DNA of 64,000 nucleotides from an uncultured Planctomycetales bacterium (GCA_964645795.1 CAZYCL010000002.1:16352-80351), one strand, 5' to 3'. Positions 16,177 to 33,675 are shown, numbered from the stretch's first letter. A program made the numbers and translations. The notes: generated from the sequence alone by a model not told the origin.

Positions 16177-17433
16177 CTATTGATTCATGCTGCCCAGGAA
16201 CTCCTCGTTGTTCTTGGTCTTGCCTAACTTTTCTATCAAGAGCTCCATGGCCTCGACGTTGCTGAGCTCATTAAGCACTTTGCGCAGTATCCAGGTCTTC
16301 TGCAACACGTCGCTCTTTACCAGCAACTCCTCGTGCCGGGTGTTAGAGCGCTTAATATCGATGGCCGGGTAGATCCTTCTCTGAAAAAGGTTCCTGTCCA
16401 GCTGGGTCTCCATGTTGCCGGTACCCTTGAACTCTTCAAAGATGACTTCATCCATGCGGCTTCCGGTATCGACAAGGGCCGTAGCGATGATGGTGAGGCT
16501 GCCCCCTTCATCGATTGCCCGGGCAGCGCCGAAAAACCGCTTGGGCCGTTGCAGGGCGTTGGAGTCGATGCCGCCGGAAAGAACCTTGCCGCTGTGCGGC
16601 ACTACCGAGTTATAGGCCCGGGCCAGACGCGTAATGCTGTCAAGCAGCACTACCACGTCGCGCTTATGCTCGACCAGGCGCTTGGCCTTCTCCAGGACTA
16701 TCTCGGCGACCTGCACGTGGCGCTCAGGCGGCTCATCAAAGGTCGAAGAGATGACTTCGCCCTTGACGTGTCTTTGCATATCGGTGACCTCTTCCGGACG
16801 CTCGTCGATCAAAAGCACTATAAGGGCCACGTCGGGATTGTTTGAGGTGATGGCGTTGGCCAGCTTCTGCAGGAGGACGGTCTTGCCGCTGTAAGGCTGG
16901 GCTACGATCAGGCCGCGCTGCCCCTTGCCGATCGGCGTCAAGAGCTGCATGATCCTCATCGATACCTCCTCGGGCTTGGTCTCCAGGTTAAACGCCTCCC
17001 GGGGATAGACGGGGGTAAGGTTGTCGAAGAGAACTTTTTCTTTGACGTCATCCGGGTTCTCAAAGTTCACCGCCTCAACCTTGAGCAGCGCAAAATACTT
17101 CTCTCCTTCTTTGGGCGGACGGATCTGGCCGCTGACGGTATCCCCGGTGCGCAGGTCGAACTTGCGTATCTGGGAAGGCGAAATGTAAATATCGTCCGGA
17201 CAGGGCAGATAATTGTAATTGGGGCTGCGCAGGAAACCAAACCCTTCGGGCAGTATCTCCAGGACCCCTTCGCCGAACATCAACCCTTCCTTCTCGGCCT
17301 GGGCCTGCAGGATCTTGAATATCAGGTCCTGCTTCTTCATGCCGCTGATGCCGTTGACGTTCATTTCTTTCGCCACCTTGTTAAGTTCGGTGATCTTCAT
17401 GTCTTTAAGATTTCGGATATCCAACTTCTCCAC
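16177..17433 (-). CDS. rho: Transcription termination factor Rho
   Basis: RNA-binding N-terminus ([28 protein letters not shown]), Walker [16 protein letters not shown] and the Q/R loops. The start is set at a GTG preceded by AAGGAGG; the longest ORF reaches 17484. Confidence 0.85.
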
Positions 17434-22093: not shown

Positions 22094-22870
22094 CTATCTG
22101 GTCAAAAGCCTCTTCTGGACCTTCTCGATGAAGTTATCGATCGCCTTATTTTTGGGGTCAAGCAGGTGCGCATCGATAGCCTGACTTAAAGCCTTTACCT
22201 CTTCTCCTTTTTTGAAGCTTTCCTTTGCCATGGTAAAGAGGTCCCTGGACTGCTCATGCGTATCCTTTCGCAGCACCTCTTTCTTCTGCTCGACTTCGCG
22301 TATCAGCCCCAGGACCTGCCTTTCCTTGCTTTCTTCCGGGCTGACAGATGTAATCAACCCTATATCGACGCATCTGGCCCTGGCCTTCTCGGTCCAGGGG
22401 TCATTGGCTAAGCCAAGGTCGGCTCTTTTCTTCCAATAATATGCCGCCTTGTCCAGGTCGCGTTTAGTCTCGTAGAAAAGCGCAAGGTTTGAGTAGGCGC
22501 TTAGGAAATTCGGGTCCGTCTTTATCGACTGCAGATATGAGTTTTCCGCGCGCTCTAACTCTCCGTTAGCCTCATAGATGATACCCAGGTCATTATAAGC
22601 TATTGCGTAGGCCGGATCAAGCTCTACCGCTTTCTGATAATAGGCCAGGGCCTTGCGCAGATCTCCCAGATTCTGAACCTGGAGCCCCTGCTGCCGGTAA
22701 ATCCTGGCCTGCTCCTGCTGCATCGAAAGCTGCGGCTCGCTCCTGTCCGTTTTTGTGCCGCCGGCAACGGCCTCGGCAGAAAACAGAAAAAAGAAGATCA
22801 GCGGCGCATATCCGCAGGCAAATAATGAAGTTATAAATTTTGTTTTCTTGGGGAGGGGCGGAATGAACAT
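22094..22870 (-). CDS. TPR-repeat protein with an N-terminal signal or lipoprotein-like sequence
   Basis: Hydrophobic N-terminus with a Cys (LFACGY) followed by several 34-aa TPR units (AYYQKAVELDPAYAIAYNDLGIIY...). Confidence 0.7.
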   Translation of the reverse strand: MFIPPLPKKTKFITSLFACGYAPLIFFFLFSAEAVAGGTKTDRSEPQLSMQQEQARIYRQQGLQVQNLGDLRKALAYYQKAVELDPAYAIAYNDLGIIYEANGELERAENSYLQSIKTDPNFLSAYSNLALFYETKRDLDKAAYYWKKRADLGLANDPWTEKARARCVDIGLITSVSPEESKERQVLGLIREVEQKKEVLRKDTHEQSRDLFTMAKESFKKGEEVKALSQAIDAHLLDPKNKAIDNFIEKVQKRLLTR

Positions 22871-22883
22871 TTGTATTGAAATT

Positions 22884-22911
22884 ATTATACTCTAACCGCT
22901 TGTTACGTCAA
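22884..22911 (-). promoter_or_regulatory. Putative sigma70 promoter (TTGACG-16-TATAAT) giving a near-leaderless TPR mRNA; the 6-bp palindrome CGCTTG..CAAGCG overlaps the -35
   Basis: The reverse complement of 22884-22889 is TATAAT and that of 22906-22911 is TTGACG. The ATG at 22870 is only 13 nt after the -10. Confidence 0.3.
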
Positions 22912-22933: not shown

Positions 22934-23848
22934 TTATCTGGCTTCAAGGCCTTGCACGCAATCTATGACTGAACCATCTTTCCTGAATCCGAGCCGGTAC
23001 GCTGCCACTTTTGAGGCGATTTGCGAACAAAGAACGACTTGCTTGGCCAGCCTTTCCCTGTCCCAGAAGGCCGCAAAGATATACGAAGAAAGCGTTCTGA
23101 AGGCGCAAGCCGCAGGAACTCCGGTGATCCTGTTTTTGCGGCAATGGTAAATGAAAAAGATCTTTTTAAGAAGGGCGCTGCCGGTTATGGATGCGGAGTA
23201 ATCGCTGAAGTTGCCGTGCCAGGGCGTGCCGTGCATAAGAAATCCGCCCTTGCCTGCGGTGATCAGCACGCGGTCGTCGTTAAAAACGCGGGCATTCGAA
23301 GACCTCCCCCATATACCGGCGATGGTAGATTTGCCTGCCCCGGAACGGCCGCAGAAGATCATGCCGCTGGCTTTCTTTTTGTCTATCCCGGCGCAGTGCA
23401 CGATCACTCCGCCCCTATCCGCATAATAACCGATGAGCATGATATGGATGCAATCGTAAATGAGGTCTTCGCACGACCAACCAAAGCGTTTTTTACCGCC
23501 GTCCATATAAACCGCGGCCTTCCTGTAATCCGGGGTTAAGACCATCACCTTCTTCCTGGCGGCAAGGCGCTGCCGGAAGATAAAATACCCGTCTTTTTTG
23601 AATGCCTGCCAAGCGGTCTTGTCCCTTAAAGGATGGATAGTGGTAAACACGGGTTTAGCGCCTTTAAGCAGGTCTGACGGCAGGTCGCTCTTGGGCATTA
23701 TCCGCATACTGCACTGCGAAGGCTGGCGCCCCCGGTAAATAAAGCGCGGGTACTTGAGGAAAGCCGGCGCATCTTTGATGTCGGAGCGGGCACGCTCGCT
23801 CTCCAGCCGCAACACAACATCCCCGATCTTAAGCCTTACTGTTTTCAC
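22934..23848 (-). CDS. HprK-fold P-loop kinase-like protein, last gene of the peptide-maturation operon
   Basis: P-loop GRSGAGKST preceded by GVIVHCAG and followed by NDDRVLI, matching the arrangement of the HPr kinase C-terminal domain. The start is set at a GTG that overlaps the upstream TGA as GTGA. An alternative ATG at 23944 would overlap rSAM-3 by 100 nt. Confidence 0.6.
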   Translation of the reverse strand: MKTVRLKIGDVVLRLESERARSDIKDAPAFLKYPRFIYRGRQPSQCSMRIMPKSDLPSDLLKGAKPVFTTIHPLRDKTAWQAFKKDGYFIFRQRLAARKKVMVLTPDYRKAAVYMDGGKKRFGWSCEDLIYDCIHIMLIGYYADRGGVIVHCAGIDKKKASGMIFCGRSGAGKSTIAGIWGRSSNARVFNDDRVLITAGKGGFLMHGTPWHGNFSDYSASITGSALLKKIFFIYHCRKNRITGVPAACAFRTLSSYIFAAFWDRERLAKQVVLCSQIASKVAAYRLGFRKDGSVIDCVQGLEAR

Positions 23849-24894
23849 GATGCCGTCCTTTGCGCGCAGGCCTGCGCCAGATCGCAATAATAGGCAACCG
23901 CTTTGTGCATATCGCCGCTCTCCAGAAGCGCCCTTCCCGGACAACGCCTGCAGCTATCCAGAAACTGGCAGGGCGCGCACGGTGAATCTTTTCTAAAATC
24001 CTGGCTGATAAGCCGGCTCAACGCCCTCATCCCTTTTTCAATCCCGTACCTGCCCAGATCGAAGCTGGGGGTTCTCACGGCAGTGCAGAGAAACATCCTG
24101 CCGCAGGGATCTACGCCAAAGCCGTCTCTTGCGGCATTGCACCTGAATAGCCTGCGGTTGCGGCCTTTGGGAGCTTGGTTTGCGCCCCTGCAAAACTCCG
24201 TATCCAGGCCCAATGAACCGTCCAAGCGGATTAAACTCGACGCATCCAGGCGGAGCGCGCAGACAGAGCTGTCGCGGTCAAGACGCGGCAAGATCAATGA
24301 CGATACCTGGTAGCCACAGCCGAGGCCGGCGGCAAAACTTTTGATCCGGTTCAACTCCTGATGGTTATCCTTTAACGCCATGCTTTTTATCTTAAAAGCG
24401 ATACCCGAAGCTTTAAGCATCCCGATCGAAGCCATGACCCTTTTGAGCACTCCCCGCCCGCCGGATATCCGGTCCAGCTTATGCGGATCAAGGCTGTTAA
24501 GCGTCAGCTCCACGCAAAAAGGCTTATGCATCTCTAAGACCCCGATCACCTCTTTATCGATAAGCATGCCGCTGGTGAATACCGTAATGATAAAACCCTT
24601 GCTGTGGGCATAAGCATAAATATCCGCAAAGTCGCTTCTGGCTAAAGGGTCTCCGCCGGTAAGGCCCAGCCAGAGTATGCCGTAATCATAAAGCTTATCC
24701 AGGACGGCGAACACCTTCTTTGTGGAAAGCTGGCGCCTTATAAATTGCCTGCGGTTGTAACAGTCGCTGTAACAATACCGGCAGTGCAGCGGGCAGGCAA
24801 AGGTCAGCTCAAACTGGCAGAGGGCCGGCCGCCCAAGCCTGCGGCTTGCCTTATGCGCCTGAAAGCTGAAATCTTTATACTCGAGATTGCGCAT
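23845..24894 (-). CDS. Radical SAM/SPASM-domain peptide-modifying enzyme, paralog 3
   Basis: CPLHCRYC (CxxxCxxC) near the N-terminus and a Cys-rich C-terminal SPASM region (CNAARDGFGVDPCGRMFLC...CAPCQFLDSCRRCPGRA). The start is set at the MRNLEYKDF Met, homologous to the starts of the two paralogs. Confidence 0.8.
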   Translation of the reverse strand: MRNLEYKDFSFQAHKASRRLGRPALCQFELTFACPLHCRYCYSDCYNRRQFIRRQLSTKKVFAVLDKLYDYGILWLGLTGGDPLARSDFADIYAYAHSKGFIITVFTSGMLIDKEVIGVLEMHKPFCVELTLNSLDPHKLDRISGGRGVLKRVMASIGMLKASGIAFKIKSMALKDNHQELNRIKSFAAGLGCGYQVSSLILPRLDRDSSVCALRLDASSLIRLDGSLGLDTEFCRGANQAPKGRNRRLFRCNAARDGFGVDPCGRMFLCTAVRTPSFDLGRYGIEKGMRALSRLISQDFRKDSPCAPCQFLDSCRRCPGRALLESGDMHKAVAYYCDLAQACAQRTAS

Positions 24895-25972
24895 CTTTCT
24901 TCTTGCGGACAAGGTCCCTGGTAAACTGCGCCTGCTTACGGTAATACGGGTCGCAGCTGAAAAAACTGCCGTCATTAAGGTAGGCCCTGGCCGGACACCA
25001 GCAGCAGTAATCGAATACATCGCAGCTCAAACACTCCCAATCAACAGGCGGTTTTATGCGGTCACAAGAAGCCTTGAGCTCCTGCCATCCGGCGGCAAGC
25101 CCTCCCCGCAGTATATCGTAGCCCGGATAATCTATCTGAGTACAAAAGTTCATCCTGCCGCAGGCATCCACGCTAAAATGCGATTGCGCCACGCCGCAGT
25201 TAAAGATGCTTTCTTTGAACCTGCGCCTTGACACAACCGGCCCGTTCTTTTTGCCTGTGCCCGGATTATTGAACATTTCCGGATAGCAGGCCCGGCGCAA
25301 TAAATAGCTCTCTTTGGGCGAAAGCATCCGGCGCATATGCGTCTTTGAACCGTCCAGGCGCGGCAAGAGCTCATTATCCAGGCGATAAATCACGCCGAGC
25401 TTGCGGGCAAAGGCGTTGACCTTGGGTATCTGGGATACATTATCCTGCATGCCGCAGGATTTTAGGGAAAAAGGCACCTTGTTCCTGCGCAATAATCTTA
25501 TGGCCCTGAAGACCTTTTCCGCCGAGCCCCTGACCCCGCTTATCGAATCAAATATTTTTTCATCCATCGCATGGACCGTTATGTCGACCTTATTCAAAGA
25601 TAACCTGCCCAGGGCCGCAGCCGTCTTTTCATCGATGAGCGAGGCATTGGTCAGGACGATCGTCTGCAAACCCAGCCTTTTGGAGTAATCGAGTATATCG
25701 AAGATATCTTTTCGTAAAAAAACCTCTCCCCCGGTAAATCCGACAAAGATGACCCCGATATCCCTCATCTGTTCCAATATAGAAAATACCTGCCGCCCGG
25801 AAAGCTCTTTGCCGGCCTTTAGAGACCTTCTTTCCGGAGGCAGGTAACAATGGAGGCATTGGAAGTTGCAGCGGTAGGTCAGCTCAAAGGCCGCCCTCAA
25901 CGGCAGCCTTTGCTCTAGCGAGACGCTCGATAGGCCCCTTACAAACTCCTTATAATCAAGCTCTTTTATCAT
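24875..25972 (-). CDS. Radical SAM/SPASM-domain peptide-modifying enzyme, paralog 2
   Basis: CNFQCLHC motif and SPASM cysteines (CGVAQSHFSVDACGRMNFC...CLSCDVFDYCCWCPARA). It overlaps paralog 3 by 20 nt. Confidence 0.8.
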   Translation of the reverse strand: MIKELDYKEFVRGLSSVSLEQRLPLRAAFELTYRCNFQCLHCYLPPERRSLKAGKELSGRQVFSILEQMRDIGVIFVGFTGGEVFLRKDIFDILDYSKRLGLQTIVLTNASLIDEKTAAALGRLSLNKVDITVHAMDEKIFDSISGVRGSAEKVFRAIRLLRRNKVPFSLKSCGMQDNVSQIPKVNAFARKLGVIYRLDNELLPRLDGSKTHMRRMLSPKESYLLRRACYPEMFNNPGTGKKNGPVVSRRRFKESIFNCGVAQSHFSVDACGRMNFCTQIDYPGYDILRGGLAAGWQELKASCDRIKPPVDWECLSCDVFDYCCWCPARAYLNDGSFFSCDPYYRKQAQFTRDLVRKKKDAQSRV

Positions 25973-27039
25973 TATCCTTTTAGGTCCAAACCCGAAAGCT
26001 GCCTCTTTCTGGCCTTAGCCAGGCGGCAGTAGTAGGGCACCGGCGCATGGTTATCTGCGGTCTCCAGATACGCGCGCTCAGGGCACCAACTGCAGTAAAC
26101 CCGCAGCCTGCAGCCTGAGCATTTTGACGCCTTGCGAAAAACCTCTTGGCTTAATCCTGCCAATTTTTTATAAAAAGCCCGCTTAAAGCCTGTCTTTAGC
26201 AGGCTTGATGAACGCTTGGAGCTTATATTGCAGAACTGCAGCCTGCCGTCGGGAGTCAGGAAGAACGAATACTGCCAGCTGTTGCAAAAGTACAGGAACC
26301 TGCCGGGCCTGGACCTTTTGCGTATCTGATGGCTGCTCTCGAGTAACTGCTTGCACATCTGGGCATCTTTTTCTTCTATAGAAATTATCTCTTTGGGCTC
26401 CAGCCTCCACAGGCAAGGCGTTTTATCTCGGTTAAGGCGCGGGAAAACAAATGCATCGAATTTGAACCTCCCCTTTCCCAAAAGCTTTTCGCTGAAAGCC
26501 TTAAGCCTGAGAACGTCATCTTTATTATGCTTTAGGCCGATGCATTTTACCACTGCGGGTATCCCTGCCTTTTTCAGGGCACCAAGCGCAGTCACGCTTT
26601 TATTAAACGAGCCACCAACCCCGGTAACCGATTCATGCGTTGCGGCGCTAGAACCGTAGAGGCTCACCTCTACCGCAAAAGGGGGATGCTGCCTGAAAAG
26701 ATCAAGGAGCTCATTGTTTATAAGCGTAGCATTGGTGAAGACCGTGACCAGAAAGCCTTTCTTTAAGGCGTACCTGTAGATGGCCGGGAAATCTTTATGT
26801 AAAAGCGGCTCTCCTCCGCTAAAGGTTAGCCACAGGCAGCCTCCGGACCTTATATCATCGAGGATCTTTTTCCATCGGCCAAACCCCAGCTCCCTCAAAG
26901 ATACCAGCGGCTTACCATGGTCACAGGTAAAACAATGCACGCATTTAAGGTTGCAGCGGTAGGTAAGGTTAAGGGTGGCTTCCAACGCTCCTTTATTCTG
27001 GCAAGCGCAGGCAAACTGGCGGTAGGCTAACTCCTGCAT
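25972..27039 (-). CDS. Radical SAM/SPASM-domain peptide-modifying enzyme, paralog 1
   Basis: CNLKCVHC motif and SPASM cysteines (CNSWQYSFFLTPDGRLQFC...CSGCRLRVYCSWCPERA). Its stop overlaps the paralog-2 start as TAATG. Confidence 0.8.
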   Translation of the reverse strand: MQELAYRQFACACQNKGALEATLNLTYRCNLKCVHCFTCDHGKPLVSLRELGFGRWKKILDDIRSGGCLWLTFSGGEPLLHKDFPAIYRYALKKGFLVTVFTNATLINNELLDLFRQHPPFAVEVSLYGSSAATHESVTGVGGSFNKSVTALGALKKAGIPAVVKCIGLKHNKDDVLRLKAFSEKLLGKGRFKFDAFVFPRLNRDKTPCLWRLEPKEIISIEEKDAQMCKQLLESSHQIRKRSRPGRFLYFCNSWQYSFFLTPDGRLQFCNISSKRSSSLLKTGFKRAFYKKLAGLSQEVFRKASKCSGCRLRVYCSWCPERAYLETADNHAPVPYYCRLAKARKRQLSGLDLKG

Positions 27040-27049
27040 AGGAAAGGTA

Positions 27050-27331
27050 TTAAACCAACGCTTTTATGTCTTTGAGGTCTTTAAGGAAAGGTGTCAGGGA
27101 CGCATCCAGTGTTTCCGGCCCCACCGCGTACTCTCTGAGGATTATCCTTTTTATCGAAAAAATATCCTTTTTCCCGTCGAACAGGCTCCAGATGCGGGCG
27201 CCGACGGCATCGAGGGTGTATATACAGTCTGCGTCTTTTGAGCTCTTATAAAGCGGGACCAGGATCGTTTCCTGTCCGAAAACGCGGGTAACGACCTCCG
27301 GGTTTTTCTTATATATATAGGAGTCTTTCAT
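27050..27331 (-). CDS. PqqD-family peptide chaperone (stand-alone RRE domain)
   Basis: 93 aa with the typical PqqD pattern (...ETILVPL...YTLDAVGARIWSLFDGKKDIFSIKRIILREY...LDASLTPFLKDLKDIKAL). Confidence 0.7.
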   Translation of the reverse strand: MKDSYIYKKNPEVVTRVFGQETILVPLYKSSKDADCIYTLDAVGARIWSLFDGKKDIFSIKRIILREYAVGPETLDASLTPFLKDLKDIKALV

Positions 27332-27361: not shown

Positions 27362-27583
27362 TTAGGTGTTTACCGCGCTTATCGAGCCGCCGGTACCGCA
27401 ATTGTTGATCCAGCACATCGAACCGACAGGATTATTGAATACCGACTTGGTACCGACCGAACAACAGGCCAGGACCGCCTGCTCGGGATTAAGCCTGATC
27501 CTGGTGATCTCTGGATTGCGCCAGGCTTTTTTGGCTGGGGACTTCTGCCTTGCGCTTCGATGACCGCTCTTGCTGGTCGGCAT
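27362..27583 (-). CDS. Candidate RiPP precursor peptide of 73 aa, with a basic PqqA-like leader and a Cys/Gly/Ser-rich C-terminal core
   Basis: The ATG is preceded by AAAGGA-N8. The leader segment KKAWRNPEITRIRLNPEQAV resembles the PqqA recognition motif W-x-x-P-x-h-x-x-h-R-L-x-x-E. The core is CCSVGTKSVFNNPVGSMCWINNCGTGGSISAVNT. The gene lies 30 nt upstream of the PqqD gene. Confidence 0.5.
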   Translation of the reverse strand: MPTSKSGHRSARQKSPAKKAWRNPEITRIRLNPEQAVLACCSVGTKSVFNNPVGSMCWINNCGTGGSISAVNT

Positions 27584-27624: not shown

Positions 27625-27653
27625 ATTTTAATGTATGGCCAAATAAAGGTCAA
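27625..27653 (-). promoter_or_regulatory. Near-consensus sigma70 promoter (TTGACC-17-TAAAAT) driving the precursor/PqqD/rSAM/kinase operon
   Basis: The reverse complement of 27648-27653 is TTGACC and that of 27625-27630 is TAAAAT, with an exact 17-nt spacer. The precursor ATG is about 40 nt downstream. Confidence 0.45.
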
Positions 27654-27660
27654 GTATAAA

Positions 27661-29847
27661 TTATAGCAGCGGCGGCATCTGGAGCGCCGGATGTTTTACT
27701 TTTTCAAGGTATGTCAGAAGCCCGCTGGATGTGGTAGCCACCGTCTCATCGGCAATGCGCTCCAGCAGGTCCGGTACGCCTTCTTCCTGGCAGCGCTTCT
27801 TGAGCTTATCGGACAAGACCTCTTTTAGCTCTTTAGGCATCCAGACCACGCGCCTCAAGCCTCCCTCTGCCCGGATGAACTTCTTGCTTACTACATAAAG
27901 CTTTCCCACCCCCAGGAACCCCGGCGTTTGCACGCCTCCGCCGACCGAACCGGCAAGAGTGGTAAAATTCATACCGCAGGGGGTCATGCCTACGTAGTCG
28001 CGGTTGACCACGATCACCCCGTTAGCTTCGGGTATTATCGCCACAATGCACTCAAAGCAGCCGCATGAAGACTGGGGTCCTTCCATCATCGAATACATGC
28101 TGACCTGCTCTACGGTCTTGTTGGATTTGGAGTAGATAAACTCATCTATGCTCTTCCATTCTCCGATGCGCTCATCGACCAGCCCGTTTTTGATTATCGG
28201 CTGGTTCGGGCCGGTAGGCATGATCTCAAATGATGCCTTGGCGTCAAGCCATGAGTAGGCCCCGCAAAGCCCCAGCCTTTCCGGGGTAATAATGCAGACA
28301 TGATTCGGGGCGAACGACTGGCACAAGAGGCATGAGTAAAAAGTATCGACGCTCTCGTCGGTCATCCCGGCCAGGCGCTCATCCCGCTCATCATAGGAGA
28401 GCTTGGCCTTCTCCAGCAGCTTCTGGACATCCTCCTTGCCGGTATATAGCTTGACCTGCACCTTATCGACGATACTGCCGTACTCCTGATGGAGCATTGC
28501 ATGAAGGATCACCCCGATATGCTTGAGGCGAAAGCCCTTGGCAAAGGCGTCCTTGGAGATCCTTATCCAGTTCATGTCGCGCTGGCCTACGTGCATAATG
28601 CCCATGGCGTAGTTGATAAAACGGTGGATCTGCCTTTCCAGTATGGGCTCGAAATCCTTCTGGGTCTTCCTGCCTGCCACCTCGACGATTATGGCCAGGG
28701 GCATGGACTTTTTTCCCGGCGCCAACTTATCGATATCTGGCCCTATGATCTCTATCTTGGCGTCATCGACTTCATTTAGCTGGCGGCAGTAGAGGTATTC
28801 GAAAGAAAGCTCGCCCTTCCCGCCGAATTCGACATAGAGCTGTTCTTTCCTCACCCTCTCGCCTTCGAATGCGGCCGCGTATGATACCGGGACATCGATG
28901 TTGGCGACTTTTACCTTCAGACCCCGCACCTCGATGCACTTGGCGGCAAGCTTGCCGTAATCCTTTTCGACAACCAATGCCTCGTATGAAGTAGTTTCGA
29001 TCTTCGCCAGCTCCGGCACATCCAGGTCCGATATGATCGGAAAACCCAGGGCCAGCGCCCCTAATCCCGTGGCCACGATCACCTCATCGACGTGGCTTAA
29101 AAGCACTACAAACGCCGGAACCTTTTGACGGCTATACTCCAGGATCCTGGCCCACTCTCCGCTCTTAAGCCCTCCATACATCAGCGGCGCTCTTATCGCC
29201 CAGTTGACCGCGTATATCGCCGAAAGGTAGTCTTGGCCGAGAGGCACGATATAATTTTCCAGCCCCATCTCCACTTTCTGGTCTTCCAGCTGCTTCTTAA
29301 GGCTCAAGCCGTCTTTGCTCCCGGCCAAAAGACAGACAATGCTCCTGGCCTGAAAATCCCGCACAAGCCTTACTGCCGAATCCGCATCTTTGGCCGGACC
29401 AAGGATCACCGCGATACCGGCGATGCGTCCGTCTACCAGCTGGATACCCAGAGACCGCAGCAGCGTATCCGACAAGAACCCTGCGCAGCCCTCCTGCGGG
29501 TGGCGTTTTTGCGCATACTCCAGCGCCGCCAGGAGCTCTTCGCACAAAAGCGTTGCCAGCCCTTTGTTAAGCATGCCCGAGAGGGCACCCAGATATAATC
29601 CGTTTGAAGCAGGTTTATTCGAAGATAATTTTTTTGCGTCATCCAGGATCCCGCGGCAATCGCCGAGGCTCCTGGCTTCTCTGTGCAAAAGGGCGTCGGC
29701 CAAAGGCAGGTAGTAATTGGTCTGATCGAAGCTCAAGGGGTCTTGGCCGCCTTTCTCTTTTATGCGCCTATCCAGCGCATCTTCGGTAAGGCCCAATATC
29801 GCCTCTGCCCCCCTGGTCCCCAGTTGCACTAAGATGTCTGTTGACAT
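27661..29847 (-). CDS. acsB: Acetyl-CoA synthase (CODH/ACS beta subunit, AcsB/CdhC type)
   Basis: 728 aa with extended similarity to ACS, including the A-cluster cysteines (CLLCQSFAPNHVCIITPERLGLCGAYSW and the Cys-Gly-Cys motif SSCGCFEC). Confidence 0.9.
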   Translation of the reverse strand: MSTDILVQLGTRGAEAILGLTEDALDRRIKEKGGQDPLSFDQTNYYLPLADALLHREARSLGDCRGILDDAKKLSSNKPASNGLYLGALSGMLNKGLATLLCEELLAALEYAQKRHPQEGCAGFLSDTLLRSLGIQLVDGRIAGIAVILGPAKDADSAVRLVRDFQARSIVCLLAGSKDGLSLKKQLEDQKVEMGLENYIVPLGQDYLSAIYAVNWAIRAPLMYGGLKSGEWARILEYSRQKVPAFVVLLSHVDEVIVATGLGALALGFPIISDLDVPELAKIETTSYEALVVEKDYGKLAAKCIEVRGLKVKVANIDVPVSYAAAFEGERVRKEQLYVEFGGKGELSFEYLYCRQLNEVDDAKIEIIGPDIDKLAPGKKSMPLAIIVEVAGRKTQKDFEPILERQIHRFINYAMGIMHVGQRDMNWIRISKDAFAKGFRLKHIGVILHAMLHQEYGSIVDKVQVKLYTGKEDVQKLLEKAKLSYDERDERLAGMTDESVDTFYSCLLCQSFAPNHVCIITPERLGLCGAYSWLDAKASFEIMPTGPNQPIIKNGLVDERIGEWKSIDEFIYSKSNKTVEQVSMYSMMEGPQSSCGCFECIVAIIPEANGVIVVNRDYVGMTPCGMNFTTLAGSVGGGVQTPGFLGVGKLYVVSKKFIRAEGGLRRVVWMPKELKEVLSDKLKKRCQEEGVPDLLERIADETVATTSSGLLTYLEKVKHPALQMPPLL

Positions 29848-30746
29848 AACGAGCTTCCCCTTTCGAGGCTGGCGATAAGGTTTTTGGCTACGATGACCCC
29901 TTCATTGCAGGACTCCTCCCAGCTCTTGCTTTCGCCCAGCTTATCCTCCAGGCAACAGACGCTGCCGCAGGCAAAAATGTTATCGAGATTGGTATGCATG
30001 AGCTCATCCACGATGATGTAACCGTCTTCAGCCCTGATCTGCGAGTCTTTCAGGAATTCAGTGCAGGGCTTATAGTTGCCGGCAAAAAGTATTAGGCTGG
30101 CTTCTATGGCCTTGCCGCTGGATAGCTTGTAAGCTTTTAACTCCGCCCCCTCCCCGATGATCTCGGTAAGAGTGGAATCGGCAATCCACTCGGAGTTCTG
30201 CGGCAGCTCTACGTCGGCCGGTTTGGGGGAAGCGATCACCTTTATGTGTTTGCCCGTCTTCGATATCGCCTCATGGAAGCCGAGGGCGGTCCCGGAGTCG
30301 GCGATAATGCAGACTGAGTCGATTATCTGCAGCCTCTCCCTCACAGCCTCAAACTGTTCCAGATTATATAAGGTAAAAACGCCGTTCTTGGTCTTGCCGG
30401 GGATATCGGGCAGGATGGTCTTACGGCCCGAAGCGATGATCAGAAAATCGTAGCTGATCCTGGTGTTATCCTTAAGGCAGACCCTTTGTTTATGCTCTTC
30501 GATACGGCTGACAGATGCGCCTTTTACCAGCTCTATATTGTTATCCCTGTAAAAAACCTCTTCGCAAAGAAAGAGGCCTTTTTCTTCAACAGAACCCCTT
30601 AAAAAATCCAGCAATAAACACTTGTTGTAAGGCAGGCAGTTTTCCTGCGTGAGCACCGTGATCTTGGCTGCTGCGGAAGAGGCGGCCAAGGTCTTGGCTG
30701 CCGAGAAACCGGCGGCGGAGTTTCCGATGATGAGTATTCTGTTCAT
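29829..30746 (-). CDS. FAD-dependent pyridine-nucleotide-disulfide-oxidoreductase-family protein (short, two-domain)
   Basis: N-terminal dinucleotide-binding motif ILIIGNSAAGFSAA and a second Rossmann motif VCIIADSGTALGF; 305 aa. Confidence 0.7.
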   Translation of the reverse strand: MNRILIIGNSAAGFSAAKTLAASSAAAKITVLTQENCLPYNKCLLLDFLRGSVEEKGLFLCEEVFYRDNNIELVKGASVSRIEEHKQRVCLKDNTRISYDFLIIASGRKTILPDIPGKTKNGVFTLYNLEQFEAVRERLQIIDSVCIIADSGTALGFHEAISKTGKHIKVIASPKPADVELPQNSEWIADSTLTEIIGEGAELKAYKLSSGKAIEASLILFAGNYKPCTEFLKDSQIRAEDGYIIVDELMHTNLDNIFACGSVCCLEDKLGESKSWEESCNEGVIVAKNLIASLERGSSLCQQTS

Positions 30747-30751
30747 GTTTT

Positions 30752-31621
30752 CTACAGGCCCGCGGCGTCCAGCACCAGGGGCACGTTTTTATTCCAACCG
30801 ATAGGCATGATGTGTATGCCCTGGCACAAAGGCCTGAACTGCCTGATAAGACGGCTGGCGATATCCACGGACCTGGCGACCTTATCCTGCGCCGACTCCA
30901 TCTCCCGGATAAGCCTCTCCGGCACGGTTATACCGGCGACGTTCTTGTTGACGAACCGCGCCATGGAGGCGGACTTTAAAAGAAGCACCCCGGCAAAAAC
31001 CTTGACCTTGAGATGCCGAATCTTGTTCATGAAAATCTCCAGGACCTCCGGTTCAAATACGGCCTGGGTTTGAAAGAACTCCGCTCCCGCGGCAACTTTC
31101 TTTTCCATTTTGATGATCTGCGGCTCCAAGGGCTCTGAGCCGGGGTTGACCACCGCCCCTACGCAGAACTTAGGCGCAATGCCCTCCAGCTTGTTGCCGT
31201 TCATGTCCCGGCCTTCCTGGATCATTTTTACAACCTGAAGCAGCTGCACGGAATCAAGATCAAAAACGGGCTTGGCCTGGGGATGGTCGCCGAGCATCGG
31301 ATGATCTCCGGTAAGTATAAGCAGGTTCTCGATGCCCATGGCCGCGGCGGACAATATATCCGACTGCAGCGCCAGGCGGTTGCGGTCGCGGCAGGCCAGC
31401 TGATATATCGGCTCCAGCCCTCTCTGTTTAAGGAGTGCGCTTACGGCAAACGAACCCATGCGCATCACCGAGCTCTGAAGCTCGGTGACGTTAATAGCGT
31501 CAACCCTGTCACGCAGAAGCTCGGCTTCTGCCAACACCAAAGACGGGTCGCTGCCCTTTGGCGGACCGATCTCGCAGGTAACGATGAAATCGCCCGACTT
31601 TATTCTTTCTTTGAATGTCAT
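30752..31621 (-). CDS. metF: Methylenetetrahydrofolate reductase
   Basis: MTHFR TIM-barrel signatures (FIVTCEIGPPKG, ILTGDHP). The start is set at MTFKERIKSG; the longest ORF reaches 31786. Confidence 0.8.
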   Translation of the reverse strand: MTFKERIKSGDFIVTCEIGPPKGSDPSLVLAEAELLRDRVDAINVTELQSSVMRMGSFAVSALLKQRGLEPIYQLACRDRNRLALQSDILSAAAMGIENLLILTGDHPMLGDHPQAKPVFDLDSVQLLQVVKMIQEGRDMNGNKLEGIAPKFCVGAVVNPGSEPLEPQIIKMEKKVAAGAEFFQTQAVFEPEVLEIFMNKIRHLKVKVFAGVLLLKSASMARFVNKNVAGITVPERLIREMESAQDKVARSVDIASRLIRQFRPLCQGIHIMPIGWNKNVPLVLDAAGL

Positions 31622-32268
31622 TGCGGCTGCGCGGCTATATTCTGACCTTGGTTGATCCTTGCCGATAATAACCTGTAGGCGTAAGCCTGGGCTACCATAG
31701 TCAGCGGTATGGTAATAAGCATCCCCAGCATAAGGGCCAGGAGCCCGGCGATATTTAGAAGCATAATGACCAGATACAGCACACAAAGCTGGCCCTTAAA
31801 ACCACTGGTAAGGACGCTGCTTTTCTTCAACGCTTCGATCGGCCCGGCTTCCTTATCTACCACCAGATAAGCGCTGAGGCTGAATTTTATGCCCCAGACA
31901 ATCCCGGGAACTATCAACAAAAATAATCCCAGTATCGTGATCAAACCCACCAGCAGCGAGGCAGCGAAGAATTTAAAGAATAGGCGCGCATGCATATAAA
32001 GGTCTTCCACTCTGACCTCTTGTGCGTCGTGAAGCTTGAGCGCTATCTTGATCAACCCGATCTGCATGACCATGCTCACCGCATACGAGAATAGCGCGAC
32101 TACCAGGCCTACCGGCTGACGGCCCTCGGACATCTTCTGCAGTATATAGGTCACCACCTCTACCGAGGCATAAACAAGTATCGTTCCCAGGACAATCGCC
32201 AGATTACCCCTGACCCTTGCCCAGGCAAAACTCAAAGCCTCGCCCACACGGATAACCTTTTCTTGCAT
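31618..32268 (-). CDS. Integral membrane protein of unknown function (6 predicted TM helices)
   Basis: 216 aa, strongly hydrophobic with repeated TM segments; no catalytic motif recognised. Confidence 0.5.
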   Translation of the reverse strand: MQEKVIRVGEALSFAWARVRGNLAIVLGTILVYASVEVVTYILQKMSEGRQPVGLVVALFSYAVSMVMQIGLIKIALKLHDAQEVRVEDLYMHARLFFKFFAASLLVGLITILGLFLLIVPGIVWGIKFSLSAYLVVDKEAGPIEALKKSSVLTSGFKGQLCVLYLVIMLLNIAGLLALMLGMLITIPLTMVAQAYAYRLLSARINQGQNIAAQPQ

Positions 32269-32285
32269 CTGGCCCTCCCTCTGGT

Positions 32286-33134
32286 TTATGATGACTGCGC
32301 AAGCTCGGCAGCTTCTACGAGATTGCGCATAAGCATGACCACCGTAAGCGGCCCGACTCCGCCGGGAACCGGAGTGATATAGGCGGCCCTGGTCCTGGCC
32401 GTCTCAAAATCCACATCACCAACTATATTAGCCCCCACCCGGTTAATGCCCACGTCAATTACCACGGCCCCCTCCCTGATCCAGGGACCCTTTATAAGAT
32501 GCGCCTTTCCTGCCGCCACCACCAGGATCTCTGCCCTTTCCACATGCTCCTGGAGCTTGTCCGCAAGAGACGTACCTATATGGCAGACCGTCACCGTAGC
32601 CAACCTCTCCACCAACATCAGGGCCAGAGGCTTGCCCACGATCTCGCTGTGCCCGACGATAACCGTCTCCTTGCCTTTAAGATCCATGCCGGTGGATTCG
32701 ATGAGCGCCATCACTGCCGCCGGCGTACACGGCAGGATGCGCCCCTTGCCAAAAACCAGCATCCCAACGTTGTGCGGATGCAGCCCCTCGACGTCCTTAT
32801 CTGCGGGTATATAGCGGCTGATCTTCTTCTGATCGATATGCGAAGGCAGGGGCATCTGGATGATCACGCCGTTTGTCTTCTTATCGGAGCCGGCTTTCAT
32901 CAAGAACCCGGCAAGCTCCTCCTCGCTTACGTCTGACTTAAAAGCATGGAGGCGGTAATCGATACCCAGCTCTTCGGCGCACTTCTCCTGACTCTTGACG
33001 TAACTGGCCGAACCGGGATTATCGCCTACCAGGATGCTTACCAGAACAGGCCTTGCCGCTAAAGCCCTGACCCGACAAGCAAGCTCCGCTTTGATCTTTT
33101 GGGCGATAGGCCTAGCCTCTAACAACTTTGCCAA
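32286..33134 (-). CDS. folD: Bifunctional methylene-THF dehydrogenase / methenyl-THF cyclohydrolase
   Basis: 282 aa with FolD motifs (SYVKSQEKCAEELGI, PGGVGPLTVVML). Confidence 0.9.
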   Translation of the reverse strand: MAKLLEARPIAQKIKAELACRVRALAARPVLVSILVGDNPGSASYVKSQEKCAEELGIDYRLHAFKSDVSEEELAGFLMKAGSDKKTNGVIIQMPLPSHIDQKKISRYIPADKDVEGLHPHNVGMLVFGKGRILPCTPAAVMALIESTGMDLKGKETVIVGHSEIVGKPLALMLVERLATVTVCHIGTSLADKLQEHVERAEILVVAAGKAHLIKGPWIREGAVVIDVGINRVGANIVGDVDFETARTRAAYITPVPGGVGPLTVVMLMRNLVEAAELAQSS

Positions 33135-33675
33135 TTTTCTCCTCCACCAGTTTCCTGGTTTTCTTTACCAGCGCCTCTTTGTGAAGCAGCTCTTTGCGCA
33201 CAGCCTTAGACAGCCTTTCGTCCTTTAACGCTTTAAGGTTTATCTCAACATTAAAGTAGGCTGAAGTAAAGGCTGCCTCCAGCATTATCGCCGCCACGGC
33301 TACATCGCTGATAAGGTTGACGTTCCCTTTTTTTATGAGGGCCGGGCACAGGCGCATGCCCTCATACGAAAGCCTGCATACCATAAGCGGAACATCCAGC
33401 GCATCCCTGATATTCCTGCTCTTATAAGCGACCACGTCAAGGTCGATGAGCCTGGTCAGCTCTTCGCGAAGCTTCTCGCAGCGATTAAGCATCTTCCTGA
33501 GATCCGCATCGTAAGAGGAGTAACGGGGCTTACCGACGGTGAAATTAACCACCATGCTGATAAGAGAGGCGCCCATTGCCGCGCTCATGGCCGCAGCCGA
33601 GCCGCCCCCCGGAGCGGCAAGCTTTGCCGCCAAATCCTCAAGGTAGGTGTTCAGATCCCGGTCCTTATAATCCAT
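33112..33675 (-). CDS. Cyclodeaminase/cyclohydrolase-domain protein (FtcD C-terminal-domain-like; methenyl-THF cyclohydrolase FchA type)
   Basis: 187 aa, all-helical, with the AAPGGGSAAAMSAAMGASL motif typical of the formiminotransferase-cyclodeaminase family. Confidence 0.7.
   Translation of the reverse strand: MDYKDRDLNTYLEDLAAKLAAPGGGSAAAMSAAMGASLISMVVNFTVGKPRYSSYDADLRKMLNRCEKLREELTRLIDLDVVAYKSRNIRDALDVPLMVCRLSYEGMRLCPALIKKGNVNLISDVAVAAIMLEAAFTSAYFNVEINLKALKDERLSKAVRKELLHKEALVKKTRKLVEEKIGKVVRG

Follow-up and report, generated by a model that had tools for sequence, protein, structure and literature searches.

Closest Described Systems

In sactipeptide and ranthipeptide systems, one enzyme installs all links iteratively and the leader-recognition domain (RRE) is usually fused to it. 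Prochlorosins are made by a different enzyme class, the lanthipeptide synthetase ProcM. The SynChlorMet (SCM) cassette consists of ScmC, the PqqD protein ScmD and two radical SAM (rSAM)/SPASM proteins, ScmE and ScmF (NCBIfam TIGR04248-04251, Pfam PF27840). No paper using this term was found, and the cassette is apparently experimentally uncharacterised. Furthermore, two rSAM/SPASM paralogs and a PqqD protein form the GeoRSP system (TIGR04302/04303). Finally, HPr-kinase homologues of lasso peptide systems transfer phosphate to the Ser at the C-terminus of linear precursors, and a set of His, Lys and acidic residues is reported as essential for this activity (PMC9266682, PMC8498205).

Gene Content and Operon Structure

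The window, i.e., the whole 64-kb stretch of DNA that was analysed, contains a locus with the following features, whose gene coordinates were taken from the minus-strand sequence and the ORF list.

27625..27653, minus strand: putative promoter-like site, TTGACC-17 nt-TAAAAT (consensus scan, 10 of 12 matches; consensus match only)
27362..27583, minus strand: precursor peptide, 73 aa, unannotated (ORF list)
27050..27331, minus strand: PqqD-family leader-binding chaperone (RRE), 93 aa (Pfam PF05402)
25972..27039, minus strand: rSAM1 (rS1 clade), radical SAM/SPASM maturase 1, 355 aa (PF04055 and Cys motifs)
24875..25972, minus strand: rSAM2 (rS2 clade), radical SAM/SPASM maturase 2, 365 aa (PF04055 and Cys motifs)
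23845..24894, minus strand: rSAM3 (rS3 clade), radical SAM/SPASM maturase 3, 349 aa, start MRNLEYKDF (PF04055 and Cys motifs)
22934..23848, minus strand: ScmC-family P-loop protein, PEPCK/HPr-kinase fold, 304 aa, GTG start at 23848 (ORF, Pfam PF27840)

This arrangement is best explained as a RiPP operon of six genes, coding for the precursor, PqqD, rS1, rS2, rS3 and ScmC. We favour, at a probability of about 0.6, a pathway in which three non-redundant maturases act on a Cys scaffold and ScmC acts as a kinase. No paper on such a three-maturase cluster was found. The earlier note on this DNA was concerned with the three rSAM genes and was silent on the precursor gene, the PqqD gene, the C-terminal Ser/Thr and a large sister family with a single rSAM.

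The promoter-like site, some 40 nt in front of the ATG of the precursor gene, is the probable promoter of the operon, judged by its match to the consensus, and a Shine-Dalgarno-like site (AAAGGA) precedes the precursor ORF. The three junctions named in the earlier note, TAATG, a 20-nt overlap and GTGA, can all be read in the sequence: base 25972 is common to the rSAM1 stop and the rSAM2 start (ggaTAATGata), the rSAM3 ATG (24894) falls inside rSAM2, 20 nt before its end (24875), and the rSAM3 stop overlaps the ScmC GTG by 4 nt (tcGTGAaa). The gene calls of four separate Logan assemblies repeat the lengths 355, 365, 349 and 304 together with the same overlaps, and an orthologue in the related locus L005 begins at the equivalent position (MKEIQYKEF). 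Such tight overlaps suggest translational coupling, but the stoichiometric expression read into them is not established, and the overlap partners vary between loci.

The locus shares with the SynChlorMet cassette a PqqD chaperone, several PqqE-like rSAM/SPASM paralogs and an ScmC-family P-loop protein. It differs by having three to four rSAMs instead of two and a defined precursor family (NPEQAV leader, Cys core, C-terminal Ser/Thr), for which there is no curated model. It does not belong to the SynChlorMet equivalogs, with scores of 76/61/46 for ScmE and 68/67/45 for ScmF against 400, 27 against 125 for ScmC and 21 against 100 for ScmD. With GeoRSP it has in common that a single PqqD serves paralogous maturases; ScmC is not known to belong to the GeoRSP definition. 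Membership was rejected here as well: the rSAM model, with a cut-off of 400, gives 59-83 bits, and the PqqD model reaches 17 of the required 100. Like SkfB, CteB, AlbA and PapB, the maturases are SPASM or twitch rSAMs for Cys-containing RiPP cores offered via an RRE, whereas three dedicated RRE-less paralogs are combined here with one discrete PqqD, and thioethers are predicted. The PqqD protein matches PF05402 with 40.7 bits (E 3e-10; gathering score 23.4), and its weak NCBIfam matches, to lasso PqqD, ScmD and GeoRSP PqqD, are all below the cut-off.

The Precursor Family

The window precursor has a Lys-rich N-terminus, a leader ...WRNPEITRIRLNPEQAV (including ...EITRIRLNPEQAV) and the core LACCSVGTKSVFNNPVGSMCWINNCGTGGSISAVNT, which contains four Cys and has Thr instead of Ser as its last residue. 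Loci with the enzyme trio encode homologues that share this leader; the exact sequence is absent from a collection of 15 billion proteins and is not called on the Logan contigs. At least 1,262 database clusters belong to the family, each of them labelled hypothetical. Its leader is conserved, and its cores are hypervariable except for three to four Cys and a C-terminal Ser/Thr that hardly varies. Four Cys, in the pattern CC-x12-23-C-x3-12-C, were found in 73 of 101 cores, with the last Cys placed tightly 9-14 residues from the C-terminus. Of 101 genomic ORFs, 98 end in Ser or Thr, as do 120 of 120 among the database proteins listed. At family level, the conserved terminal Ser of PadeK/ThcoK-type substrates is represented as Ser/Thr.

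Three Intact Radical SAM/SPASM Paralogs

Pairwise BLASTP alignments over nearly the full length gave 32% identity for rS1 and rS3 (E 3e-58), 31% for rS2 and rS3 (E 4e-53) and 27% for rS1 and rS2 (E 7e-40). The three enzymes are collinear, with M1, L4, Y6 and F9 in common at their starts, and the paralogy that had been claimed is far above chance. None of them looks like a pseudo-enzyme, a possibility that the earlier note had raised: all three alike retain CxxxCxxC and the seven SPASM Cys in the form Cx12Gx4C, Cx2Cx5Cx2C and a final Cys. The reference motif is Cx9-15Gx4C ... Cx2Cx5Cx3C ... C, so that the spacing in the second block is x2 and not the canonical x3.

rS1: C29/33/36; C252, C270, C307, C310, C316, C319, C338
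rS2: C35/39/42; C259, C277, C314, C317, C323, C326, C340
rS3: C34/38/41; C252, C270, C306, C309, C315, C318, C337

The radical SAM domain PF04055 was found in all three with 65-74 bits (gathering score 29.5; E 5e-20, 2e-20 and 9e-18 for rS1, rS2 and rS3). No match to the Pfam SPASM domain PF13186 was obtained at E<=0.1 for any of them, and precomputed Pfam assigns it to 2 of 120 among the rS1 homologues listed. For rS1, the only maturase of the three that was modelled (AF2, pLDDT 91), Foldseek shows similarity to SPASM enzymes across the full length, namely anSME (TM 0.71) and SuiB (TM 0.68), over about 380 alignment columns, as well as SkfB (E 1e-14) and PqqE. SkfB is also the best solved relative by profile (E 1.7e-32). 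The top PDB sequence match is PqqE for rS2 and SkfB for rS3, each with E 1e-10. The closest solved relatives include C-C cross-linkers (PqqE, SuiB) and thioether formers (SkfB, CteB) at comparable distances.

An alternative is three chemically different reactions which are not all thioethers, e.g., a Cys cross-link, a C-C/ether cross-link or epimerisation, and an MftC-like modification of the C-terminal Ser/Thr, with a role for ScmC other than C-terminal phosphorylation. PqqE and MftC models are among the top NCBIfam matches of rS2 and rS3, some core positions other than Cys are conserved (R/K at the fifth residue after CC, Q before Cys3), and Nitrospirae-type trios have three enzymes for precursors with only three Cys, one of the enzymes carrying a truncated, twitch-like C-terminal domain. 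However, all NCBIfam matches of the maturases are far below the curated cut-offs and reflect generic SPASM similarity, and strict conservation within the core is limited to Cys and the C-terminal Ser/Thr. Such a mixture of reactions is considered unlikely.

Another way to account for three enzymes is a split by substrate, each paralog serving a subset of a multi-copy, hypervariable precursor pool, as TrnC and TrnD divide the two thuricin CD peptides between them. In related genomes, 2-6 divergent precursor genes are present and often lie at a distance from the maturases (L120, L114, L105), and the window covers 64 kb of a contig that is at least 345 kb long. In the window operon and in many trio loci, however, one precursor lies beside three maturases, and leader and Cys pattern are uniform across the precursors. 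Given this uniformity, substrate classes that could correspond to three enzymes are not apparent, which makes this division of labour quite improbable.

Ancestry and Gene Order of the Maturases

At E<=1e-10, rS1 has 849 homologues. Each copy has orthologues with 39-51% identity in Verrucomicrobiota, Planctomycetota, Omnitrophota and 'Deltaproteobacteria', compared with 27-32% between the copies; the L005 orthologue of rS1, for example, scores 281 bits against 138 and 183 bits for the paralogs within the cluster. In a neighbour-joining tree of 141 homologues, drawn without bootstrap values, rS1, rS2 and rS3 form three separate multi-phylum clades. The CxxxCxxC columns are 100% Cys in every clade and the SPASM Cys columns about 100% per clade, and the clades differ in their Cys signatures. 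In rS2, the most divergent copy, the final SPASM Cys (C340) is shifted by five alignment columns throughout the clade (100%). The rS3 clade carries additional Cys, namely C45 in all members (100%) and C212 in 85%.

Gene order varies as well, with rS1-rS2-ScmC-rS3 in L005, rS2-PqqD-ScmC-rS1-rS3 in L096 and rS1-rS3-ScmC-precursor-rS2 in L066. Nevertheless, 16 of 19 related precursor-bearing loci of 5 kb or more contain 3-4 rSAM genes; two long loci, L126 and L160, have only two clear ones each. The earlier view of local tandem duplicates does not fit these data, and by sequence comparison the three enzymes are anciently diverged. Its proposal that each paralog has its own job is compatible with the separate orthologue clades, their Cys signatures and the co-occurrence of the genes.

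A larger sister group has a single rSAM per system, and one enzyme handles 3-Cys precursors there. Taken together with the Nitrospirae-type trios, this means that the number of enzymes does not simply follow the number of Cys. The single-rSAM systems also lend something to the view that the three maturases are redundant isozymes from local tandem duplication, any one of which installs all modifications iteratively as in PapB- or AlbA-type systems, and so do their collinearity and identical cofactor motifs. Redundant copies, however, would not be expected to be co-retained across phyla, and given three distinct clades and a trio kept despite shuffled order, redundancy is very unlikely.

ScmC and the C-Terminal Ser/Thr

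Precomputed Pfam assignments give the ScmC-family domain PF27840 to the identical protein, and likewise to 88 of 92 proteins retrieved. The protein has a PEPCK/HprK P-loop fold with the HPr-kinase-like residues His, Lys, Asp and Asp; the His, the P-loop Lys and the acidic pair are invariant, and the sequence resembles the HprK families weakly, with E values of 1e-6 or worse. By analogy with the lasso peptide kinases, the probable role of ScmC is to phosphorylate the precursor at its C-terminal Ser/Thr. As for PadeK, ThcoK, SyanK and PsmK, the terminal Ser is conserved across the precursor family, the cluster includes a PqqD-type RRE and related loci add a nucleotidyltransferase partner. The ScmC residues match the set reported as essential (PMC9266682, PMC8498205), and phosphorylation is a prediction here. 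In contrast to those systems, the maturases are rSAMs, and both a lasso cyclase and a B2 protease are lacking. The locus was not classed as a lasso peptide cluster, the Asn-synthetase-like cyclase and the transglutaminase-like leader protease being absent from the operon genes and from the gene families conserved around 22 related loci. In Anaerolineae, some precursors of single-rSAM systems lack the C-terminal Ser, and an ScmC with catalytic-type residues is still present.

Related trio loci additionally encode NTP_transf_5 nucleotidyltransferases, S24/S26 peptidases and ABC exporters. NTP_transf_5 is shared with the phospho-glycosylated lasso peptide cluster (PsmN), a likeness by annotated enzyme class only. 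An intracellular peptide-derived cofactor of the PQQ or mycofactocin kind would suit the lack of a peptidase or exporter in the 64-kb window, the surrounding Wood-Ljungdahl and other housekeeping genes and the PqqD plus PqqE-like gene set, but is extremely unlikely as the product given these exporters and peptidases and cores which are hypervariable and multi-copy, unlike cofactor precursors.

Proposed Pathway

In the favoured pathway of three non-redundant maturases and a kinase, PqqD would bind the conserved leader (EITRIRLNPEQAV) and offer the Cys-containing core to the maturases. We infer that all three of these anciently diverged enzymes are required and act differently, each introducing its own modification by site and/or chemistry. 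The chemistry would most likely consist of Cys-derived thioether cross-links of the sactionine or ranthionine type, a predicted linkage to which the core Cys and the thioether formers among the nearest solved relatives point indirectly. Such cross-links would rigidify the 4-Cys scaffold and leave the loops free to vary. ScmC would be an active HPr-kinase-fold phosphotransferase, with the C-terminal Ser/Thr, nearly invariant among the precursors, as its most likely target. Counting against this pathway are the mixed chemistry of the closest solved relatives, the 3-Cys precursors of single-rSAM systems and of Nitrospirae-type trios, the two rSAM genes of L126 and L160, the Anaerolineae precursors without a terminal Ser, the terminal Thr of the window precursor, the missing PF13186 match and the absence of a peptidase or exporter from the window.

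The pathway represents a widespread, uncharacterised type of peptide natural product. It resembles prochlorosin-type libraries in its conserved leader, hypervariable cores and precursor genes scattered away from the maturases, and differs in the enzyme class and in that the multi-copy precursors come from related contigs, not from this window. More tentatively, it may belong to a phylum-spanning, unnamed RiPP class in which an HPr-kinase-fold enzyme acting on the invariant C-terminal Ser/Thr is combined with one to four rSAM/SPASM enzymes, and whose trio branch performs three different reactions on a 4-Cys scaffold, at least one of them new for SPASM enzymes. If this is true, the multi-copy hypervariable precursors of Omnitrophota-like genomes would constitute a combinatorial peptide library.

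Three radical SAM/SPASM genes with overlapping junctions

The operon is located on the minus strand and encodes a precursor peptide, a leader-binding chaperone of the PqqD family, three radical SAM (rSAM) enzymes with a SPASM-type domain (rS1, rS2 and rS3) and ScmC, a P-loop protein with a PEPCK/HPr-kinase fold. The following features were assigned to the operon and its surroundings:

27661-33675, minus strand: genes for the CODH/ACS beta subunit, a pyridine-nucleotide disulfide oxidoreductase, MTHFR and a FolD-like ORF (identified by eye)
27653..27625, minus strand: promoter-like site upstream of the precursor ORF
27583..27362, minus strand: precursor ORF, 73 aa, MPTSKSGHRSARQKSPAKKAWRNPEITRIRLNPEQAVLACCSVGTKSVFNNPVGSMCWINNCGTGGSISAVNT
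27331..27050, minus strand: PqqD-family gene (Pfam PF05402, 40.7 bits; gathering score, 23.4)
27039..25972, minus strand: rS1, 355 aa
25972..24875, minus strand: rS2, 365 aa
24894..23845, minus strand: rS3, 349 aa
23848 (GTG start) to 22934, minus strand: ScmC-family gene, 304 aa (precomputed Pfam PF27840)
22911..22884: promoter-like site of the TPR gene itself
22094-22870, minus strand: TPR protein with an N-terminal hydrophobic segment, directly downstream of ScmC

The earlier note had described three neighbouring radical SAM genes with overlapping starts and stops, and this was confirmed on the minus-strand sequence. The stop codon of rS1 shares one base with the start codon of rS2 (TAATG), rS2 and rS3 overlap by 20 nt, and the stop codon of rS3 runs into the start of the ScmC gene (tcGTGAaa), where the GTG begins the 304-aa ORF ending at 22934. 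The four gene lengths and the overlaps are identical in the gene calls on four independent assemblies, which supports ATG 24894 and GTG 23848 as real starts.

The three proteins are collinear, as had been proposed, and align from residue 1 onward with a mutual identity of 27-32% (BLASTP E-values from 7e-40 to 3e-58). Each of them contains the motifs CxxxCxxC, Cx12Gx4C and Cx2Cx5Cx2C as well as the last cysteine. No copy lacking its cysteines was found, and a pseudo-enzyme among the three is ruled out, since every Cys ligand is present and conserved. The Pfam SPASM model gave no match to the three proteins. The AF2 model of rS1 (pLDDT 91) matches the structures of anSME (TM 0.71) and SuiB (TM 0.68) over the full length, as well as those of SkfB (E 1e-14) and PqqE.

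Age and distribution of the paralogs

An alignment of rS1 homologues was scanned against one genome per species, which resulted in 80 loci. The majority, spread over at least 15 phylum-level groups, encode PqqD, one rSAM enzyme, a small ORF and then ScmC. Eight loci carry multiple rSAM genes, which sort cleanly into rS1, rS2 and rS3 orthologues. These belong to Verrucomicrobiota (L005), Omnitrophota (L006), Planctomycetales (L007), 'Deltaproteobacteria' (L066), Nitrospiraceae (L036, L045 and L053) and WOR-3 (L061).

The paralogs had been regarded as tandem duplicates, a reading which did not survive comparison with these loci. The three enzymes of the verrucomicrobial locus scored 281/138/183, 131/260/158 and 204/150/286 bits against rS1/rS2/rS3. 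In a neighbour-joining tree of 141 sequences, calculated without bootstrap values, rS1, rS2 and rS3 form three separate clades, with rS1 and rS3 as sisters close to the clade of the single-rSAM systems and rS2 farther off. A local tandem duplication is ruled out by the orthologue scores and the tree; judged from their sequences, the paralogs of the window are ancient and not local duplicates.

Allowing for sequences truncated at contig ends, the cysteines of CxxxCxxC as well as C252, C270, C307, C310, C316 and C319 are conserved to 100% in the three clades. The last cysteine is C338 in rS1 and rS3 and lies five alignment columns earlier in every member of the rS2 clade, and an eighth, upstream cysteine is not generally conserved. 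Furthermore, each clade has private cysteines, like C45 in 100% of rS3.

Gene order is shuffled from locus to locus, so that the tight packing of rS1, rS2 and rS3 is one of several arrangements. Junctions often overlap, but with varying partners, e.g., a 4-nt overlap of ScmC and rS1 in L093, L096 and L160.

Co-occurrence was assessed for 19 precursor-bearing loci of at least 5 kb that include maturases. Three or four rSAM genes were found in 16 of them and two clear ones each in L126 and L160, while the remaining locus is broken off at the contig end. Four rSAM genes are present in L066, L163, L090/L091 and L006, with two rS2-type copies each in L066 and L163. In L007 and L126, an extra, very divergent rSAM-like ORF follows rS2 (44-59 bits).

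In Nitrospirae-type trios, the place of rS1 is taken by a paralog akin to the enzymes of the single-rSAM clade. Its truncated C-terminal domain is without the Cx2Cx5C block and thus resembles a twitch domain, not a complete SPASM domain; CxnGx4C and one further cysteine are retained. This form (L097 2880-3857, L117 1376-2374, L094 1158-2171, L102 2646-3767 and L090 5702-6625) is confined to Nitrospirae-type relatives.

The precursor family

The precursor ORF at 27362-27583 was overlooked by gene callers and is uncalled on all four independent assemblies, and its exact 73-aa sequence has no match in a collection of 15 billion proteins. Its leader motif, ...[KR][IV]xLNPEQA[VI], adjoins the multi-rSAM loci and is absent from the remainder of the 80 genome loci. 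A metagenome scan with the precursor alignment yielded 310 contigs, and a protein search yielded at least 1,262 clusters of the precursor family, none of which has a Pfam domain or an annotation other than hypothetical.

In a set of 101 unique complete ORFs, the core typically reads L[S/A]CC[D/S/N]xxx[R/K] ... QC-x3-11-C-x8-13-S, with 12-23 residues from CC to the third cysteine and 9-14 residues from the fourth to the C-terminus, whereas the rest of the core is hypervariable. Four cysteines are present in 73 and three in 19 of these ORFs. The C-terminal residue is serine in 94/101 and threonine in 4/101; among the matches listed, all 120 database homologues end with one of the two. It may be speculated that the leader is cut directly before CC: with V-L-[S/A] ahead of the cut, such a site would agree with the preference of S26-type peptidases for small residues at -3 and -1.

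On some low-GC contigs, two to six tandem precursor genes lie amid housekeeping genes and far from any maturase. The related metagenome contigs L120 (6465-9032), L114, L105, L103 and L088 carry 2-6 divergent copies, with maturases absent within the contig. These contigs look like a combinatorial precursor library.

Single-rSAM sister systems and ScmC

In the sister family with one rSAM/SPASM enzyme (L009-L065, e.g., L012 7649-10109), the layout is PqqD, rSAM, precursor and ScmC; cable bacteria (L047 and L077) belong here. The precursors, which are homologous and encoded between rSAM and ScmC (e.g., ...YEKPxLxxVxLxAEEVLAVGCK..C..C..GS), gave no NCBIfam model match and mostly end with Gly-Ser, except for an Anaerolineae subgroup. 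One enzyme per cysteine is ruled out by the three-cysteine cores of single-rSAM systems and the three cysteines in Nitrospirae trios.

A sequence search of the PDB with ScmC gave no match, and fold searches were therefore used. The AF2 model (pLDDT 91) showed clear fold matches, the top Foldseek matches all being PEP carboxykinases. H151, the P-loop GxSGxGK173[S/T] and the acidic pair 191/192 are conserved among the ScmC homologues examined. The HPr-kinase homologues of lasso-peptide systems, PadeK, ThcoK, SyanK and PsmK, phosphorylate the C-terminal serine of the linear precursor and may have a nucleotidyltransferase partner (PMC9266682, PMC8498205).

The Anaerolineae precursors (L035, L041, L042 and L046) end with RY, NP, GH or LP. 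The corresponding ScmC proteins keep the histidine, the P-loop lysine and the acidic pair, in which E-D replaces D-D; apart from this change from D to E, no catalytic residue is lost. These non-serine ends next to an intact ScmC are not explained by a model of ScmC as a C-terminal serine kinase.

Genomic context and accessory genes

Housekeeping genes flank the operon: acsB, MTHFR and the FolD-like ORF lie upstream, and the genes for the TPR protein and polA lie downstream. The genes at 27661-33675, directly upstream on the same strand, belong to the Wood-Ljungdahl pathway and C1 metabolism, and the best rSAM homologues come from Omnitrophota MAGs. Together, this suggests an acetogenic-type Omnitrophota genome.

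Related trio loci encode NTP_transf_5 nucleotidyltransferases (11 proteins), S24/S26 peptidases (10), ABC exporters (9 loci) and methyltransferases. A UPF0489-TPR protein is also recurrent, and the S24/S26 peptidase gene sits directly upstream of PqqD; stretches with such accessory genes are L005 2374-7194, L147 12166-14707, L066 7218-7646 and L007 6744-7241. No S24/S26 peptidase, NTP_transf_5 protein, ABC exporter or methyltransferase of this kind was found within the 64-kb window; a weak match at 16858-17157 falls within the rho gene and was dismissed as spurious. Among the accessory types sought, only the TPR protein at 22094-22870 bears a partial resemblance, in its TPR part (31% identity over 138 aa, E 3.5e-7, to that of the UPF0489-TPR protein), which may be generic TPR similarity.

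Comparison with known systems

None of the six operon proteins matched an NCBIfam model at its curated cut-off. Among named systems, the SynChlorMet (SCM) and GeoRSP cassettes come nearest. SCM, GeoRSP, mycofactocin and PQQ models scored far under cut-off, as did heme d1/AhbD, StsB, WgkB and others. SynChlorMet is a catalogued cassette of the same general kind (PqqD, PqqE-like paralogs and ScmC), but none of the four curated SCM cut-offs is reached by the operon. To our knowledge, the curated description of SynChlorMet gives its precursor as unidentified.

Literature searches for SynChlorMet or the NPEQAV motif, for HPr kinases combined with radical SAM and either PqqD or RiPP, and for three radical SAM enzymes with SPASM found nothing relevant; for Omnitrophota and ranthipeptides, titles and abstract openings indicated BGC surveys only. 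The general kind of cassette and the Pfam family of ScmC are catalogued; the operon, however, has three conserved maturases and comes with a large precursor family for which no model, name or paper was found.

Proposed pathway and its significance

The observations best fit a RiPP pathway: PqqD would bind the conserved leader, the Cys scaffold would be modified by three non-redundant rSAM/SPASM enzymes, and ScmC would phosphorylate the C-terminal Ser/Thr. A division of labour among rS1, rS2 and rS3 is suggested by the three orthologue lineages kept across phyla, the residues particular to each clade and the existence of simpler sister systems with a single enzyme. By analogy, thioether chemistry is a plausible guess, because the cysteines are conserved and SkfB and CteB are among the nearest solved relatives; C-C cross-linkers are equally close, and the number of enzymes does not track the number of cysteines.

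RiPP radical SAM/SPASM enzymes are commonly studied as single iterative catalysts. If the proposed pathway is true, three conserved, non-redundant paralogs with one discrete PqqD would be a natural system for studying the division of site and reaction specificity among near-identical folds, and could show how one leader-binding protein passes its substrate to several enzymes. ScmC-type cassettes are now assigned a precursor family of at least 1,262 clusters, and the ScmC protein gains a testable role. This family represents an untapped group of peptides in uncultivated phyla, like Omnitrophota, Nitrospirota, Planctomycetota, Verrucomicrobiota and others.
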